Below are positions 5,102 through 59,009 of a DNA stretch of 64,000 bases, one piece after another; the stretch's first letter is position 1; each line of letters begins with the position of its first letter. Location of the stretch: UHGV virus genome UHGV-0213393. One strand, 5' to 3'. The stretch is from a virus. A program made the position numbers and the translations under genes. The notes below the pieces were generated by a model, which searched no databases, was not told the origin of the DNA, and saw only the letters and a list, made by a program, of their open reading frames with translations.

Positions 5102-5481
5102 TGTACGAGGCTACTAAATTACGCATTGAGGATGCGATGCACATTGGTTGGGACATCATCACCTGCAAGATAACATCATGCAAGGCTACACGCACAGACG
5201 CCGGACACAAGAGCACAATATCAGGTTATGTCGTGATGTCAGTCAGGAGTGTGCGCATACGCTTCAGATGGAAAGCCTGCCAGGTTACATCATCAATGCC
5301 GCTTACCGTCGAGCAGGATTACTTATGCTTACCCGAAATAGACGGAGCGTTGCTGGTGGGCAATAGTGGTCGAAAAGCCGATTTTGAAGCCAGTCTGAAG
5401 ATGGCGCAGGCGGTGATCAACAAACATAAAGGGAAGTGGGAGGCAAAAGTTAAGCATGTTGTTCGTTTATCCCGCTGGTAG
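5098..5481 (+). CDS. hypothetical protein
   Basis: 127-aa ORF translationally coupled to upstream gene. Confidence 0.5.
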   Translation: MMYEATKLRIEDAMHIGWDIITCKITSCKATRTDAGHKSTISGYVVMSVRSVRIRFRWKACQVTSSMPLTVEQDYLCLPEIDGALLVGNSGRKADFEASLKMAQAVINKHKGKWEAKVKHVVRLSRW

Positions 5482-5496
5482 CGTTAGTAAATTAAT

Positions 5497-5514
5497 ATTA
5501 ATTTTCTAATACAT
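5497..5514. promoter_or_regulatory. operator-like motif variant (ATTTTCTAATA)
   Basis: taattttctaatacat between ORFs. Confidence 0.35.
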
Positions 5515-43703: not shown

Positions 43704-43991
43704 TCATTTTGTATCCTCAGACTCTGCAAGCATGAGGATAGCATGGCGGATCATATTCAATTTGCTGCGATTATGCTTTTTGCTTAACGCATCAAGTACC
43801 TGGTACTCGTATTCATTGAAGCCAACACGAATGGATTTAAAATCACGTGGGGCGTCCTTATCGAGCACTTTGTTGTCTTCTGGTTGCTCACCCGGCACCA
43901 AATCAGCCTTACTGGCAAAATCCTCAATTCGGCGTTCAAGATCGGGGTCTTTTACTTCGGGGGCTTTTACCGATTTACGAGGCTTAATCAC
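43704..43991 (-). CDS. ParG-like small partition protein
   Basis: 95-aa ORF directly downstream of and overlapping parA-like gene. Confidence 0.5.
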   Translation of the reverse strand: MIKPRKSVKAPEVKDPDLERRIEDFASKADLVPGEQPEDNKVLDKDAPRDFKSIRVGFNEYEYQVLDALSKKHNRSKLNMIRHAILMLAESEDTK

Positions 43992-44625
43992 TTAATAACT
44001 CCTTAACCAACATCTGGATTTCACCTTTAGCTTTCCCGTTGTCCATCTCAACAACGCCCTTCCCTTCAGCCATGCAATCGCGGTAAACCTTACGATCACG
44101 AATGATGGTTTTCAGCAACTTCAGTTGCGGATATTCAGCCAGGTACTCTTTGGCCTCATTGGTTTCATTCACAACCGGATTGGATGGGGCCATTGTTAAG
44201 ACTGCGAACGCCTTAATGCTAGGATTAGGCATCAGGTCCAAAGCCTCTTCAAACACTTCAACAAAGTGTGCCAGCGTGTCTAAATCTGGTTGAGATGGTC
44301 TAAATGGGACCAACACAATATCTGCAGCGGTTATGCCTGTACGCATCTCTTTGCTATCGCGCCCGGCTGTATCAACAACTACAAATTCATAACGCTTATC
44401 CAGATCGAGAAGTGTTTCTCGAATATTACCAAACTTCTGGACACAATGAATTACAGGAGAAACCTCTGCCGTGTTACGGTCAGCTGCCCAGCGGGCAGCT
44501 GTTCCTTGCTTGTCTGCATCTAGTAACACTACATCCTTATTTTCGCGGGCAAGCTCCGCACAGATGTTTACGCTTGTGGTTGATTTTCCACAGCCACCTT
44601 TTTGGCTGACTACCAATATAATCAT
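43984..44625 (-). CDS. parA: ParA/ParF-family partition ATPase
   Basis: Deviant Walker A VVSQKGGCGKST and overall ParA-like architecture. Confidence 0.85.
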   Translation of the reverse strand: MIILVVSQKGGCGKSTTSVNICAELARENKDVVLLDADKQGTAARWAADRNTAEVSPVIHCVQKFGNIRETLLDLDKRYEFVVVDTAGRDSKEMRTGITAADIVLVPFRPSQPDLDTLAHFVEVFEEALDLMPNPSIKAFAVLTMAPSNPVVNETNEAKEYLAEYPQLKLLKTIIRDRKVYRDCMAEGKGVVEMDNGKAKGEIQMLVKELLSD

Positions 44626-44910: not shown

Positions 44911-45276
44911 TTAATCAGGGAGTGAGTTTGCCAAATTCTGTGCAGAGCGGCTTTTCGAAACGCCAGGTTTTTTAACATCCGCTGAGGCTGAGGGGTTTCC
45001 TTCAGGGTTTTCCCGAACTTCAGGCGAAATTTCAAGAAATGAAACCAGCATTTTTCTGATCACTTCAGGGCTATTATCACCGGATAAAAGCGATGCCAAC
45101 ATGGGAGGTAATCTGCTATCAACCTCGCCAAGAGCGATACCTGCAAGCATCGCTGTGCGCGCCATATCATTGCGATCTCTTAATGGATGGCCCTCAAGTT
45201 TTGCATCAGCATATTGCTCACTGGCGTTAAGACCAGGACGAAGATAAAACAATACTTTTCGACGTTCCTGAGACAT
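44911..45276 (-). CDS. parR: ParR centromere-binding protein
   Basis: Directly downstream of parM; RNDMARTAMLAGIAL parallels R1 ParR. Confidence 0.75.
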   Translation of the reverse strand: MSQERRKVLFYLRPGLNASEQYADAKLEGHPLRDRNDMARTAMLAGIALGEVDSRLPPMLASLLSGDNSPEVIRKMLVSFLEISPEVRENPEGNPSASADVKKPGVSKSRSAQNLANSLPD

Positions 45277-45286
45277 GGCAACCTCA

Positions 45287-46246
45287 TCAACCGATAGATT
45301 TTAGACCATAGACAAGAGCAAGTTGTGGATCATCAGCAACGAAAAACCTATCGTCACGAATGTTTACCTGCTCACGGATAGCATCAGCAACAAGCGGCGC
45401 GCCGCCACCAATGACCATAACATGCGTGTATCCTTTGAAATCACTGATCACATCCAGTACGCGTGTACGGAGTCGTTCTATGCTTGACGAAATGGCTTTC
45501 TTAACATCATCAATAGCAGACGGATCGTTAATATTGTCGGTCAAATAATCCTCATCATCACGATTAATGATTAATTGATCGACATTATAATTAGAGGTTT
45601 CGGTATTCGCTTTTGCAAGTGCCTGTCTGACCTCTTTAGTTACCAGCGAAACGCCGAGATTAGAATCGCCAAATACGCGAGAAACGGCGGTCATTTGCCC
45701 GGCGACCATCGACACATCCAGAGTAGTCCCACCAAGATCAACAATAAGCACAGAATGCGCTGGCACAAGGCTGTCGCACAGACCGATCCCTGCGGGTATT
45801 GACTCCGGGCGCACAGTCACTTTTTTGATAGTAAAAACCTGACCTTTGTTAAGGGTGACTGGTCGCATCAGGCTGGCCTTTTTCCGCTCAATATTTTTCA
45901 TGTTGTATTGTGCGTCGTCGTCATAAAACTCTGCCAGTGGCAACGTGACAACTATTTCCACTTCTTGAGGCTCAATGCCACTTGTAAGCAGGGCATGATG
46001 AACAGCAAGCACATTAAGCGGGCTGTATTGCCATTCAACGTTATTCGTCGGCAGCACATCCGGCGAGATCAAGTCATATGAATATTTTTCGTCATCAATG
46101 ATGTAGTTAAACGGCTTTCCTGCGCCAAATGTGGCGGACCATCCACGTTTAAAACTGTTCGGACAGATATGGGTTCGAGTTTCCCCGTCTTGTTCCCACA
46201 GCATTTTGATATTGGTAGAACCATCGTCGATAAAAATGCGCATCAT
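45287..46246 (-). CDS. parM: ParM/StbA actin-like partition ATPase
   Basis: MMRIFIDDGSTNIK, HHALLTSG, IVDLGGTTLDVS, GYTHVMVIGGGA closely parallel R1 ParM as recalled; RBS GGAG. Confidence 0.9.
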   Translation of the reverse strand: MMRIFIDDGSTNIKMLWEQDGETRTHICPNSFKRGWSATFGAGKPFNYIIDDEKYSYDLISPDVLPTNNVEWQYSPLNVLAVHHALLTSGIEPQEVEIVVTLPLAEFYDDDAQYNMKNIERKKASLMRPVTLNKGQVFTIKKVTVRPESIPAGIGLCDSLVPAHSVLIVDLGGTTLDVSMVAGQMTAVSRVFGDSNLGVSLVTKEVRQALAKANTETSNYNVDQLIINRDDEDYLTDNINDPSAIDDVKKAISSSIERLRTRVLDVISDFKGYTHVMVIGGGAPLVADAIREQVNIRDDRFFVADDPQLALVYGLKSIG

Positions 46247-46339
46247 ATTGCTCCACTTCTGAGACACATTTGAGAAAGAATTGAATTTTATATGAGAAAA
46301 CAAAATAAGACCAGAAGTTAGATAGCGTAAAAAGCATCA

Positions 46340-55087: not shown

Positions 55088-55639
55088 ATGACACCTTCTG
55101 AACTATTAGAAAGCGTTAAAGCGCGATTCAATCCTCTTCTTGTACGGGAAGAGGAGACACTGAAAGCATTCCTGATCAAAGCATTGACTACTTACCAGGA
55201 CAGAGCGGGAGTAGTGAAGGCATTAAAGCTGGAGAAAGCAGACGGTACGGCGATCCCTGTTCCGGATGATTATCTGTCTCTGATCCACGTCACTGACCAC
55301 AACGGACTTCTGGTTTACGCCGACGAGATTGCCGGTTTTGTCGAACTTGAGCTTACCGGTTCTGAACGCTGGCCTTTCAAGATGCAATACCTTGTAAATC
55401 TCCGCGATCGCAACCTGGATGAGTGGCAAGTTCCACCTGCGATTATCGGAATGCTTGAGGAATATCTTGAAGCACTTATCAATGTCCGCAACGTTGCCCG
55501 CCAGCGAAGGGCGTCAATTGATGGCAAGTTTGATTACTCCGATCTTCCTGATGAGGCGACGCTCTACGCGCGTGTTCAGGAGATAGAAGAAAAAATGGCA
55601 GCCAACCGGGCCATTATCCCTGGTGCTACCATTTTTTAA
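55088..55639 (+). CDS. hypothetical structural protein
   Basis: 183-aa ORF. Confidence 0.45.
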   Translation: MTPSELLESVKARFNPLLVREEETLKAFLIKALTTYQDRAGVVKALKLEKADGTAIPVPDDYLSLIHVTDHNGLLVYADEIAGFVELELTGSERWPFKMQYLVNLRDRNLDEWQVPPAIIGMLEEYLEALINVRNVARQRRASIDGKFDYSDLPDEATLYARVQEIEEKMAANRAIIPGATIF

Positions 55640-56360
55640 CACGGAGGGCTACGTGAGTATTTTTAGTGCTGCAACGCAAACGCTAGCCAGTGCGGTATCG
55701 TTTAGCGCGAAATCGTTCACCAGCAACCTTATCAGCGACATTCTGGATAGAGCGGTGTCTGGCAGTGGCGTTAGTGGGAGCTATGGCAATGACATCGCTT
55801 ACGGAAAGAACGTAGTTGCTACGGCTATGCGTATCCGCTATGCCCAGGGCTGGCAGTGGACGGTAGATGTAGACGGATTAAGCGGCTTTGATATGTTCGT
55901 TAAGGACATAACTTACAGTAGCGGGAATATTGAAACAGAAAGCAAAATCATTGGTAGCGTCGAGTTCAATAAGCCAACGCACGTAACCGCCGGACCGGTA
56001 ACAATGACGGTCAGAGACACAGAAGACGGCAAAATAATGAATTGGTTCAAGGAGCGCCGCGCCCGTGTAACCAATAGCGATGGTACGCTAAACCTGCCGC
56101 CAGATTATCTCATGAATATCAGGCTATACCGCGTTACACAGGAAGGCGGGAAAGAGCTGGAAGAGGAAATGCGTGTATTTCCTACTCAGATAGGAGAGAT
56201 CAGCCGCTCACGTGATCAGGTGTCCGAATTCTTGTCCTATCCGATCACGTTCCAGCGATACACATCTGCTGGTTCCGGCCTGTCCGCATTAGTCAATGGA
56301 GCTGCTGGTTTAGCAACAAGCGCACTTAAAAGCGCCGCCAGCAACGTGATCAAGTTTTGA
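55623..56360 (+). CDS. hypothetical structural protein
   Basis: 245-aa ORF. Confidence 0.45.
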   Translation: MLPFFNTEGYVSIFSAATQTLASAVSFSAKSFTSNLISDILDRAVSGSGVSGSYGNDIAYGKNVVATAMRIRYAQGWQWTVDVDGLSGFDMFVKDITYSSGNIETESKIIGSVEFNKPTHVTAGPVTMTVRDTEDGKIMNWFKERRARVTNSDGTLNLPPDYLMNIRLYRVTQEGGKELEEEMRVFPTQIGEISRSRDQVSEFLSYPITFQRYTSAGSGLSALVNGAAGLATSALKSAASNVIKF

Positions 56361-56395
56361 AATGCAATATTAAAGTGCGAGAAGGTGGGGAAGGG

Positions 56396-56693
56396 GCAAA
56401 CTTGAGGGCAATTTCTACACCTGCTGTTTACGTCAATGATGGCATTTTTTACACATCACAACAAAATCAATGAGTTACATTCAAAAAACACTTAACAGGT
56501 GTGCTATAAAAATAGCTATAACATACGATGCTATCTGAGGGTGATTTTTACACATTACTTATTAATCAATAAATTACAAATGATGTTAGCCGTTAAAGCT
56601 CCAACCAACTCACTAATGGTGTAAGAATTGCCCTCAATCTCCCATCTTTAAGGGCAAATCCTACACCTACAGAGAGGTGTAGAAATTGCCCTT
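56396..56693. repeat. repeated GGGCAA(W)TTCTACACCT sites including an 18-bp-arm palindrome
   Basis: gggcaatttctacacct at 56406; agggcaaatcctacacct-acagag-aggtgtagaaattgccct at 56651-56693. Confidence 0.5.
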
Positions 56694-56711
56694 AAGACTG
56701 CTGATGGAGAA

Positions 56712-56942
56712 ATGTTGACTATAGTCGAAATGGCTTACAACTAATGTTGACTGTACTCGATACCGATCACAAAACATTGACTACACACGACAAGAAATGA
56801 GGAAAGATTGACTATAAGCGACAAATACTCAATGAAATAGCTGGTTTATCCATTGATCATGTGAAAAAGTTAATAACTAAATCCGCCAGCATCAATGTTT
56901 GTCGCGTATAGTCAACGCTTGGAATCGCACACAGTCAATGTT
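56712..56942. repeat. iteron array downstream of repA (incA-like)
   Basis: About six 19-bp repeats related to ATCGCACATAGTCAACATT in both orientations. Confidence 0.7.
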
Positions 56943-57825
56943 ATGGATTTCGTTTATGGATCTGGAAACCTATTTTCCGACCATTCTTTATCTCTGAAAA
57001 TTTAAGATATTCAACAGCTTCCAAGTCTTTCATGGCTTTACGAATCACACTGTTCTGAACGCTAACCGATGATTTGAGGTTCAATCTGGCGCGAAGGCGC
57101 TCAATACTCACTGGCGCAGGGTTTGAAGGTAACGCTTCGAAAAACGTATAAAGCACCTTGGCTGTCTCTTTCCTGCCAAGTTTATCGAGCATTTTGAGCT
57201 TCAATATTCGCTTATAGTCAACGTAATACAACTCAGACAACTGCTTCTGCGGTTGGATTCTTATAATGTCATTTTCAGTATCAAGTTCACTAAATGCCAA
57301 TAAATTCATCTGGATATAACGAACATGTTCTTTGCTGGTGGGCAAGTTGAACTTCAGCAACGTCTGCTGAATACGCGTTAGAGAGTCGCCAATGCTCTTG
57401 CGAAAAGCCTTGGACAGCCGCTTCCTTGGATAACCGCAACGATCCACAAATTCAGAGAATGTCAGGGTGATCACACCATCATTATCTGGTTTATAGTCAA
57501 ACAATGCAGATGTAATGCCTATCCACACCTTAAAATCAGTATCCATATCCAGCCGTGGCCCATGAATCTCAATACCCTGATACCCTTCCTGCTCTACAAT
57601 CTTCAGGCTGGACAGTTCTTCTGTCGCATCAGTGGAGTTAGTTAAACCGGCGTTCTTGCGACGTAAAGCAACACTGGTAGATTTCAATGTGGGAACAAAC
57701 ACCCCAAGCCGCAACAAAGCTATCGGCTGAATAGTGCTATTATTGTTAGGCTTTAAGCTGTGGATTTCTCCGGTATTCCCTGATATTTCCTCAACGTTCA
57801 GAAAGCCTTTTTTGTCATCTACCAT
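56941..57825 (-). CDS. repA: RepA iteron-binding replication initiator (P1 RepA family)
   Basis: IQPIALLRLGVFVP and GPRLDMDTDFKVWIGI match P1 RepA as recalled; flanked by iterons on both sides. Confidence 0.9.
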   Translation of the reverse strand: MVDDKKGFLNVEEISGNTGEIHSLKPNNNSTIQPIALLRLGVFVPTLKSTSVALRRKNAGLTNSTDATEELSSLKIVEQEGYQGIEIHGPRLDMDTDFKVWIGITSALFDYKPDNDGVITLTFSEFVDRCGYPRKRLSKAFRKSIGDSLTRIQQTLLKFNLPTSKEHVRYIQMNLLAFSELDTENDIIRIQPQKQLSELYYVDYKRILKLKMLDKLGRKETAKVLYTFFEALPSNPAPVSIERLRARLNLKSSVSVQNSVIRKAMKDLEAVEYLKFSEIKNGRKIGFQIHKRNP

Positions 57826-57874
57826 CCTGTTATTTCCTTGATTGACGGGGCTTTATAGCCAAATGAAAGATACT

Positions 57875-57883
57875 TATCCACAG
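57875..57883. promoter_or_regulatory. DnaA box
   Basis: TTATCCACA adjacent to the upstream iterons. Confidence 0.6.
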
Positions 57884-57904
57884 CCGTCTGAGGGCTGAGA
57901 GAAT

Positions 57905-58009
57905 TATCGCATACAGTCAATGTTTATATCGCATATAGTCAACATTAAATCGCGTACAGTCAACATTAAATCGCACATAGTCAACATTAAATCGCACATA
58001 GTCAATGTT
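57905..58009. repeat. five direct 19-bp iterons upstream of repA (origin/incC-like)
   Basis: atcgcatacagtcaatgtt, atcgcatatagtcaacatt, atcgcgtacagtcaacatt, atcgcacatagtcaacatt, atcgcacatagtcaatgtt at 21-23 bp spacing. Confidence 0.85.
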
Positions 58010-58044
58010 GATCTCCATTTAGGCCAGTGATGGCGCGGCTCGCA

Positions 58045-58125
58045 GCGATCCGGGATCTTCTTTGGATCTTACTGGTTCTCTTTGGGATCTATTTATTGGA
58101 TCTACCCTGTGGATAAATAGGTTAA
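58045..58125. promoter_or_regulatory. GATC cluster with second DnaA box, origin-associated
   Basis: Five GATC within about 70 bp then ctgtggataaa. Confidence 0.6.
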
Positions 58126-59009
58126 AGTCAAAATCACACACTCCCTATCCTCCAGCCAAACGAGTACCGACTTTTCTGGAGGAATCCTTGAACATTCCCA
58201 AATTCCCATTACCTTCACAGCCTGAAATAGAAATTCAGTTTCATGCACCTACTGTGAAAGATGCCCTGAAATATTCAGACATCAATCCGGCAGAAGACGA
58301 GGCAACCACAACAGAATACCTCAACGCCATGCAAGATGGCGAAATTAACGACAGCTCAAACTGGACAGTTCAGGATCGCAGAACCGCGCTATGGTGGATC
58401 TTTGTCAATTCCAGACCAGATGCCGTAATGACTTACTCATACGAGTGTGGTCACTGTGGAAACGTTCATCACGCAGATATTAACCTTTCAGACCTTGCCG
58501 AAACGGTAGAAATCCTGACTGTCCCGCCGTTTATTAAAACTATGGTCCCTATAAACGGAGTACCAACCGAGTGGACGCTTAAACCACTAACAGGGAAAGG
58601 CGCTGAATTGCTTGAACGTATGCGCGCCACTTTGCCTGATATGAAAACTCCAGAGTACAGTGCTGAGGTTGCTCGTCTCCGCATAGCTGAGTTGGCCTTG
58701 TGTACATCTCTGAACGACGATCCAGAAGACTTCACACAAGCTGCAAACAGACGATTCGATATCATTGAAAACATGGCACTGGAAACCGAGTTTACCCCTC
58801 TGGTAGCTCGCATTCAGCTCATGCAGAAAGACCTTCGCCACGGCTTAAAAATGGCTATTGAACGAGGCACAAGCCGCCTGATCCTACCGCCACAACGCTG
58901 CAAAAACGCTAAGGAGGGTGCAGACGTGACTACCACGCTGTACGCCCCATTTCTCAATAGAGAGTTTATCCCATCAATTAGATCTGAATGGATGGCTAAC
59001 CATTATTAA
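58062..59009 (+). CDS. hypothetical protein (5' end overlaps origin GATC cluster; true start probably downstream)
   Basis: 315-aa ORF; contains CGHCGNVHH motif. Confidence 0.45.
   Translation: MDLTGSLWDLFIGSTLWINRLKSKSHTPYPPAKRVPTFLEESLNIPKFPLPSQPEIEIQFHAPTVKDALKYSDINPAEDEATTTEYLNAMQDGEINDSSNWTVQDRRTALWWIFVNSRPDAVMTYSYECGHCGNVHHADINLSDLAETVEILTVPPFIKTMVPINGVPTEWTLKPLTGKGAELLERMRATLPDMKTPEYSAEVARLRIAELALCTSLNDDPEDFTQAANRRFDIIENMALETEFTPLVARIQLMQKDLRHGLKMAIERGTSRLILPPQRCKNAKEGADVTTTLYAPFLNREFIPSIRSEWMANHY

Follow-up and report, generated by a model that had tools for sequence, protein, structure and literature searches.

A large palindrome lies between the structural operon and the iterons of repA in this phage DNA, and it raises the question of what it binds and to which replicon it belongs. 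A sequence-only reading had described the locus as a complete P1-type origin accompanied by a palindrome without a known counterpart in P1 ori/par, and had offered a regulator-binding site or a recombination site as its possible role. Here, we report a follow-up of this reading across the window, i.e., the whole 64-kb stretch of DNA that was analysed, including the comparison with related phage-plasmids that it had proposed; this comparison did trace the palindrome, namely to a D6-type iteron array that is found in phage D6 and in plasmid pEC361_3.

The element and its resident replicon

Judged from its sequence, the 64-kb window belongs to a D6-like phage-plasmid, with the gene order of phage D6 and the D6-like plasmids, i.e., 22 (sheath), 21, pmgG, bplB, pmgC, tub, repA, pmgB, and sit. 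The closest matches to the window in the phage, plasmid, and E. coli collections are at 98%. The replicon region is flanked by tub and pmgB, and sequence comparison indicates that this tub-pmgB slot is normally occupied by a mini-F-like replicon in D6-like phage-plasmids. The resident replicon of the window and its two neighbours consist of the following features (bit scores are those of a P1-family iteron matrix).

55623-56360, plus strand: tail-tube-like gene (tub), left neighbour of the replicon region
56711-56823, minus strand: four P1-family (p0111-like) control iterons, distal incA-like array, 16.8-23.7 bits
56900-56942, plus strand: two P1-family control iterons by the repA stop, proximal incA-like array, 21.5 and 22.7 bits
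56941-57825, minus strand: repA, P1-family initiator of 294 aa, 41% identical to P1 RepA
57874-57882, plus strand: perfect DnaA box TTATCCACA, between repA and the origin iterons
57905-58009, plus strand: five direct origin iterons (incC-like) with 21-22 bp spacing, 22.2-28.4 bits
58047-58102, unstranded: five-GATC cluster (Dam sites, origin opening region), with sites at 58047, 58054, 58065, 58086, and 58099
58108-58116, plus strand: perfect DnaA box TGTGGATAA at the outer origin end, where the similarity to P1-like plasmids stops
from about 58062, plus strand: pmgB-like gene, right neighbour of the replicon region

The label of a complete P1-type origin stands with respect to architecture and protein family, and on these grounds the resident replicon is a complete P1-family iteron replicon, but it is not P1's own. 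The RepA of the window aligns with P1 RepA at 41% identity over 271 aa (E 2e-70), with a Rep3_C match above the cut-off and a weak Rep3_N match just under it. The P1-family iterons of the window (AATCGCAYAYAGTCAAYRTT) and those of P1 (GATGTGTGCTGGAGGGAAA) are unrelated in sequence, and a P1 iteron matrix finds no match anywhere in the locus. Likewise, parA-parB-parS is absent beside the incA-like array, the neighbours of which are the D6-type array described below and tub; in P1, parAB-parS adjoins incA, whereas ParM/ParR of the window lies ~10.6 kb away. The p0111/RCS47/SJ46-type replicon, in comparison, has an iteron consensus nearly equal to that of the window, and the RepA of the p0111/RCS47 type is 85% identical; at the DNA level, however, the repA segment is only ~78% identical to the P1-like phage-plasmids RCS47, SJ46, and phi456. 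The name p0111 has been used for a second P1-like replicon type, as distinct from IncY (bioRxiv 10.1101/2025.09.12.675607). Unlike in P1 and the P1-like phage-plasmids, the P1-family replicon of the window sits in a D6 backbone.

Repeat and pattern searches confirmed the five direct iterons upstream of repA (57905-58009), the DnaA box, and the five-GATC cluster of the sequence-only reading, and its estimate of about six downstream iterons proved right: four are on the minus strand (beginning at 56711, 56743, 56773, and 56804) and two on the plus strand (beginning at 56900 and 56923, a layout equal to that in P1 incA). With a matrix derived from MH445380, a P1-like plasmid, through its origin iterons, all eleven window sites scored 16.8-28.4 bits. 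Five origin iterons, five GATC sites, and DnaA boxes are shared with P1 oriR-repA-incA, and the P1 record has Dam sites 1-5 annotated in an arrangement equal to the GATC cluster of the window; one further GATC, at 58010, lies apart from the cluster. As in the window, the control iterons of P1 incA run in two orientations and abut the repA stop, although P1 has nine of them and the window six. Present replication would proceed from this P1-family origin, with RepA monomers and DnaA predicted to open its GATC-rich region and with the six downstream P1-family iterons possibly restraining copy number via pairing with the origin, as in P1.

Two minor observations can be added here. A full-scoring P1-family iteron (21.1 bits) is located inside the repA coding sequence at 57206-57225, and its conserved counterpart in a P1-like plasmid (L005 2829-2848, 21.6 bits) occupies the corresponding position. 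The window has actin-type partition genes: a ParR-like Plasmid_stab_B protein is encoded at 44911-45276 and ParM at 45287-46303, and they are adjoined by a small ParA/MinD-like ATPase at 43984-44625; no P1-type parAB was seen in the window, the partition pair being ParM/ParR at 44911-46303.

The palindrome and the D6-type iteron array

The palindrome had been described as perfect with 18-bp arms; in fact, its arms are 21 nt long (56648-56668 and 56675-56695), 19/21 (90%) complementary, and separated by a 6-nt spacer. Its motif, GGGCAAWTYCTACACCT, has four matches at ≤3 mismatches, all in 56406-56691, compared with a mean of 0.41 matches in shuffled sequence, and none of the 100 shuffles reached four. 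Both places at which the motif had been noticed earlier, 56406 and 56651-56693, do carry it, but a fourth strong copy (56617-56637) and two degenerate copies had been missed. The array at 56402-56695 is thus made up of four strong and two weak D6-type sites, listed here with their scores from a D6-type matrix and together with two IHF-consensus sites.

56402-56422, plus strand: D6-type (RepE-like) iteron 1, orphan, 31.1 bits, conserved in D6
56436-56456, plus strand: weak D6-type iteron 2, 15.8 bits, with a positional counterpart in D6
56465-56477, plus strand: IHF-consensus site AATCAATGAGTTA, 9 nt past weak iteron 2, D6 counterpart TATCAATCAGTTA
56535-56555, plus strand: weak D6-type iteron 3, 17.4 bits, conserved in D6
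56564-56576, plus strand: second IHF-consensus site AATCAATAAATTA, 9 nt past weak iteron 3, D6 counterpart TATCAATACGTTA
56617-56637, minus strand: D6-type iteron 4, orphan, 33.4 bits, deletion partner of iteron 6
56648-56668, plus strand: D6-type iteron 5, left palindrome arm, 28.6 bits
56675-56695, minus strand: D6-type iteron 6, right palindrome arm, 26.7 bits, holding a relic repA stop codon

The matrix was built solely from ten origin iterons of D6 and pEC361_3 and has a maximum of 34.8 bits. The four strong sites score 26.7-33.4 bits, and nothing outside the array exceeds 15.8 bits anywhere in the 64-kb window; the motif itself has no occurrence outside the array, neither in the rest of the 64 kb nor in a complete relative. 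Within the phage collection, D6 is the sole match to the non-coding stretch 56384-56716, at 69%. In D6, the motif forms five direct 22-bp repeats directly upstream of repA, and a six-site array closing with a convergent pair is present downstream of repA as well; the arrays of D6 and the window are 69% identical, with their sites in register. Plasmid pEC361_3 (NZ_AP027414) is 100% identical to window positions 56361-56705 and then continues into a D6-type repA that encodes 251 aa with 98% identity to the D6 protein and has its stop codon within the last iteron; in this plasmid, too, the motif occurs as five direct 22-bp repeats beside repA in addition to the downstream array. These alignments identify the two palindrome arms as iterons 5 and 6 in the control array downstream of repA in a D6-type, mini-F-like replicon. 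The earlier statement that it has no counterpart in P1 ori/par is true for P1 itself; in the replicon of phage D6, however, the motif is the iteron. Of the two roles offered earlier, that of a binding site survives as a prediction, with the protein being an initiator of the D6/mini-F RepE type which is not encoded here. Based on this case, a new function should be proposed for "mystery" repeats beside a rep gene only after they have been compared with iterons from related elements.

The D6 replicon (repA/orf42; repB in some papers) shares with the window the motif, the tub/pmgB slot, and the layout of the downstream array, including a convergent terminal pair that overlaps the repA stop. It differs in that it has the initiator and five origin iterons, whereas the window retains the downstream array only. 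For pYU39_89, the literature mentions iterons around this rep gene (PMC6799933). The layout of mini-F ori2/incB-repE-incC is that of the D6-type replicon (origin iterons, rep gene, and downstream control iterons), with the difference that the downstream D6-type array in the window has mixed orientation. D6-type RepA and F RepE share 50% identity (E 2e-86; D6-type RepA against PDB 1REP, 2e-73), and the half-site TGAGGGCAATTT is common to F iterons and D6-type iterons, but the other half differs (CTACACC vs GTCACA). F-plasmid specificity of the window sites was rejected: F iterons score <8 bits with the D6-type matrix, and the window sites are therefore RepE-like, not IncFIA. Judged from the site sequences, the specificity of F and D6-type sites is probably distinct.

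When the window lineage is compared with D6 (the D6-type members of each hold the cognate initiator), identity amounts to 88% in the iteron columns and 44% outside them (Fisher p = 5e-18). This pattern argues that the downstream sites are functional in D6-type replicons, where they would, by analogy with F incC and P1 incA, serve as copy-control sites. A small ORF in this region (56499-56624, 41 aa) was considered as a gene and rejected because the non-iteron columns there are just 44% conserved. As for the two IHF-consensus sites, the consensus WATCAANNNNTTR has only four matches in 64 kb, two of them after weak iterons, and both positions are retained in D6 although the spacer identity is just 44%. 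Please note that these two sites are not independent, because both sit in a duplicated, tandem-like unit of 99 bp, made up of a weak iteron and an IHF site, which is present in two copies at window positions 56437-56634.

Is an initiator for these sites present on the element? A tblastn search with D6 RepA found no D6-type RepA in the 64-kb window (best E 2.1), nor in p98205, a complete plasmid of 94 kb (best E 0.52). The RepA of p98205 is 100% identical to that of the window, the aligned segments of the two are 90-99% identical (mostly 97-99%), and the initiators in the p98205 annotation are limited to one of the plasmid type and a lytic RepL. About 30 kb of the element lies outside the window, and for this part we infer the absence of an initiator from the 97-99% identical relative. 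Since no D6-type initiator is encoded, the sites were classed as orphan copy-control iterons. Without their cognate initiator, they would play no part in the element's own replication. Two side effects are predicted, i.e., binding of the initiator of any co-resident D6-type phage-plasmid, and use of the sites as homology patches for recombination and deletion.

Replicon exchange in the tub-pmgB slot

The reading that we prefer, with a probability of about 0.82, is that a P1-family cassette replaced the D6-type repA and origin, and that the palindrome consists of orphan D6-type iterons left over from this exchange. The cassette, ~1.42 kb long (56707 to ~58117-58130), brought in the incA-like iterons, repA, the incC-like iterons, the GATC cluster, and the DnaA boxes; in exchange, the slot lost its D6-type repA together with the origin iterons and an inverted iteron, and the downstream D6-type array at 56402-56695 stayed in place. 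The two junctions are as follows.

56695-56705, minus strand: remnant of the D6-type repA, comprising its last three codons (..QQS), and left cassette junction; identity to pEC361_3 ends at 56705
58117-58130, unstranded: 14-nt filler at the right junction, from the alignment; the D6 backbone resumes at ~58131

At the left junction, the relic stop codon of the lost D6-type repA is located at 56692-56694 and is homologous to the repA stop of pEC361_3; after 56705, the window changes over to P1-family control iterons. The junction bases ACTGCTGAT resemble ACTGCTTGAT, a sequence distal to incA in a P1-like plasmid, and because this near-match is found at the equivalent P1-like place, the left join may have used microhomology, in which case the ACTGCTGAT bases could stem from either parent. 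At the right junction, the filler in plasmid CP042620 differs from that in the window, and the history possibly comprises more than one event for this reason, i.e., the right junction may have been altered afterwards or may have arisen repeatedly. A DnaA box, CTGTGGATA, is found near the right junction in both replicon types (window 58100-58135; L004 ~5440-5500).

The resulting hybrid belongs to known kinds of element and is not a new kind. It has been proposed that replication genes are often exchanged among phage-plasmids, possibly escaping incompatibility (PMC10879196). Neither this hybrid nor its junctions or orphan array turned up in the literature, the D6 genome paper being outside the search scope, and a literature search on orphan, remnant, or vestigial iterons returned nothing relevant. 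The locus provides a base-resolved example of a phage-plasmid changing its incompatibility group, in which a 1.4-kb replicon cassette was exchanged in a conserved structural-gene slot and the old control iterons remain as a footprint.

Further hybrids were collected from PLSDB (two), RefSeq E. coli plasmids (several), IMG/VR (two contigs), and a metagenome (one contig, 99.8% identical to the window). The exact RepA of the window is listed in 1186 blocks of an assembly collection, and 9/9 of the contexts that were examined have a D6-like setting. The hybrid lineage thus appears to be widespread in E. coli assemblies, and typing by the D6 rep gene alone would probably miss such hybrids.

Fate of the leftover iterons and alternative readings

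The sequence-only reading had held that a palindrome neither conserved nor needed for replication, copy control, and stability would speak against its proposal, and with respect to conservation and to survival without the palindrome the records largely bear this objection out. The palindrome is kept in ~109 D6-type plasmids, but it is lost in two hybrids, CP042620 and the IMG/VR locus L013, in which the P1-family replicon persists. The segment with iterons 4-6 was found in 110 plasmid records, i.e., essentially all D6-type RepA records (~108 at ≥95% identity) and one hybrid. Among the hybrids sampled, the four strong sites are retained in ~12/14, and the two losses, one of them in a complete deposited plasmid (CP042620), are deletions that fused iterons 4 and 6 on different sequence backgrounds. 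Because two hybrids have deleted it, the palindrome is dispensable for the P1-family replicon. The 99-bp unit with its weak iteron is missing from nine aligned hybrid loci, a length polymorphism from repeat-to-repeat deletion; it is single-copy in most of the sampled hybrids (L002, L007, L012, and L015-L022 are listed). The GGGCAA core of iteron 5 carries an A-to-C change in five hybrid loci, and of the hybrid-private point changes, 3/8 fall in iteron columns where 36% are expected, although these are small numbers. As far as sequence comparison goes, the hybrid pattern fits relaxed constraint on orphan sites. Since the hybrids are young (96-99.8% identical), retention of the strong sites neither proves nor rules out selection.

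Are the leftover iterons still interfering with the ancestral replicon type? The control iterons of F incC and P1 incA exert incompatibility in trans, and the orphan D6-type iterons could have been selected as decoys that titrate or pair with the initiator of a D6-type competitor and lower its copy number. This would be a one-way incompatibility, as the hybrid itself replicates from an unrelated origin. The intact four strong sites in most of the sampled hybrids and the wide distribution of the lineage are in line with such a role; we nevertheless regard it as unlikely, for the palindrome has been lost twice, the 99-bp unit is absent from most of the sampled hybrids, the core of iteron 5 is substituted in some of them, and the hybrid-private changes are not depleted in iterons. 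In addition, a single-copy array with four sites may be too weak, and nothing can be read from retention in hybrids as young as these.

A further point in favour of decoys comes from phage D6 itself (L001 4944-4985; also L004 3705-3746), which has two convergent iterons of the canonical P1 (IncY) type shortly after the tub stop, i.e., in the same slot. The pair, TATGTGTGCTGGAGGGTTG and the complement of CGTGGGTGCTGACGGGAAA, scores 23.7 and 17.1 bits with a matrix made from 14 annotated P1 iterons; the 71-nt segment that contains it is present in 102 D6-like plasmids at ~90-100% identity (one record, 80-90%), and the pair is absent from the window lineage. Its presence suggests either an earlier replicon swap at the tub-pmgB slot or a retained function. 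Against the latter as a decoy function, the P1-type pair in CP042620 is altered in the conserved GGAGGG core relative to D6. That swap-leftover iterons work as decoys in both directions, the D6-type sites of the hybrid against its D6 relatives and the P1-type pair of D6 against P1, seems to us a rather doubtful proposition; if the decoy reading were true, the tub-pmgB slot would be a replicon-exchange hotspot and, at the same time, a store of incompatibility weapons.

With the leftover-iteron reading still preferred, the position and the fold of the palindrome need to be considered. It sits between convergent genes, and its single strands fold strongly (-15.8 and -16.3 kcal/mol, z-scores -6.6 and -5.7), and the palindrome may be seen as a hairpin or roadblock terminating transcription between the tub operon and repA. 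We consider this very improbable: there is no T-run after the palindrome on either strand, the terminator scan makes no call, both arms score as full iterons, the between-lineage substitutions are not compensatory, and two hybrids with the same gene context are without the palindrome. The promoter/terminator scan gave nothing at the palindrome, with counts not above those of shuffles, and an Rfam scan of 56200-58300 returned just sub-threshold hairpin matches to animal microRNA models.

An operator of a phage or plasmid regulator, or the target of a site-specific recombinase, would also be a repeated, partly palindromic motif within a non-coding region, but this is hardly credible for a motif that is confined to the array in the 64 kb, is absent from the complete relative, is fully explained as the iteron of a known initiator family, and has undergone deletions that are ordinary repeat-to-repeat events between same-orientation iterons. 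A P1 C1 operator and parS were rejected as well: by-eye matches to the C1 operator consensus reach only ~10/17, and no ParB adjoins.

One of the records with an identical RepA in a D6-like context, L021 (GCA_026231215.1, JAEGNL010000005.1), is located on a contig of 381,655 bp, which is far above phage-plasmid size and could reflect an integrated copy or a misassembly.
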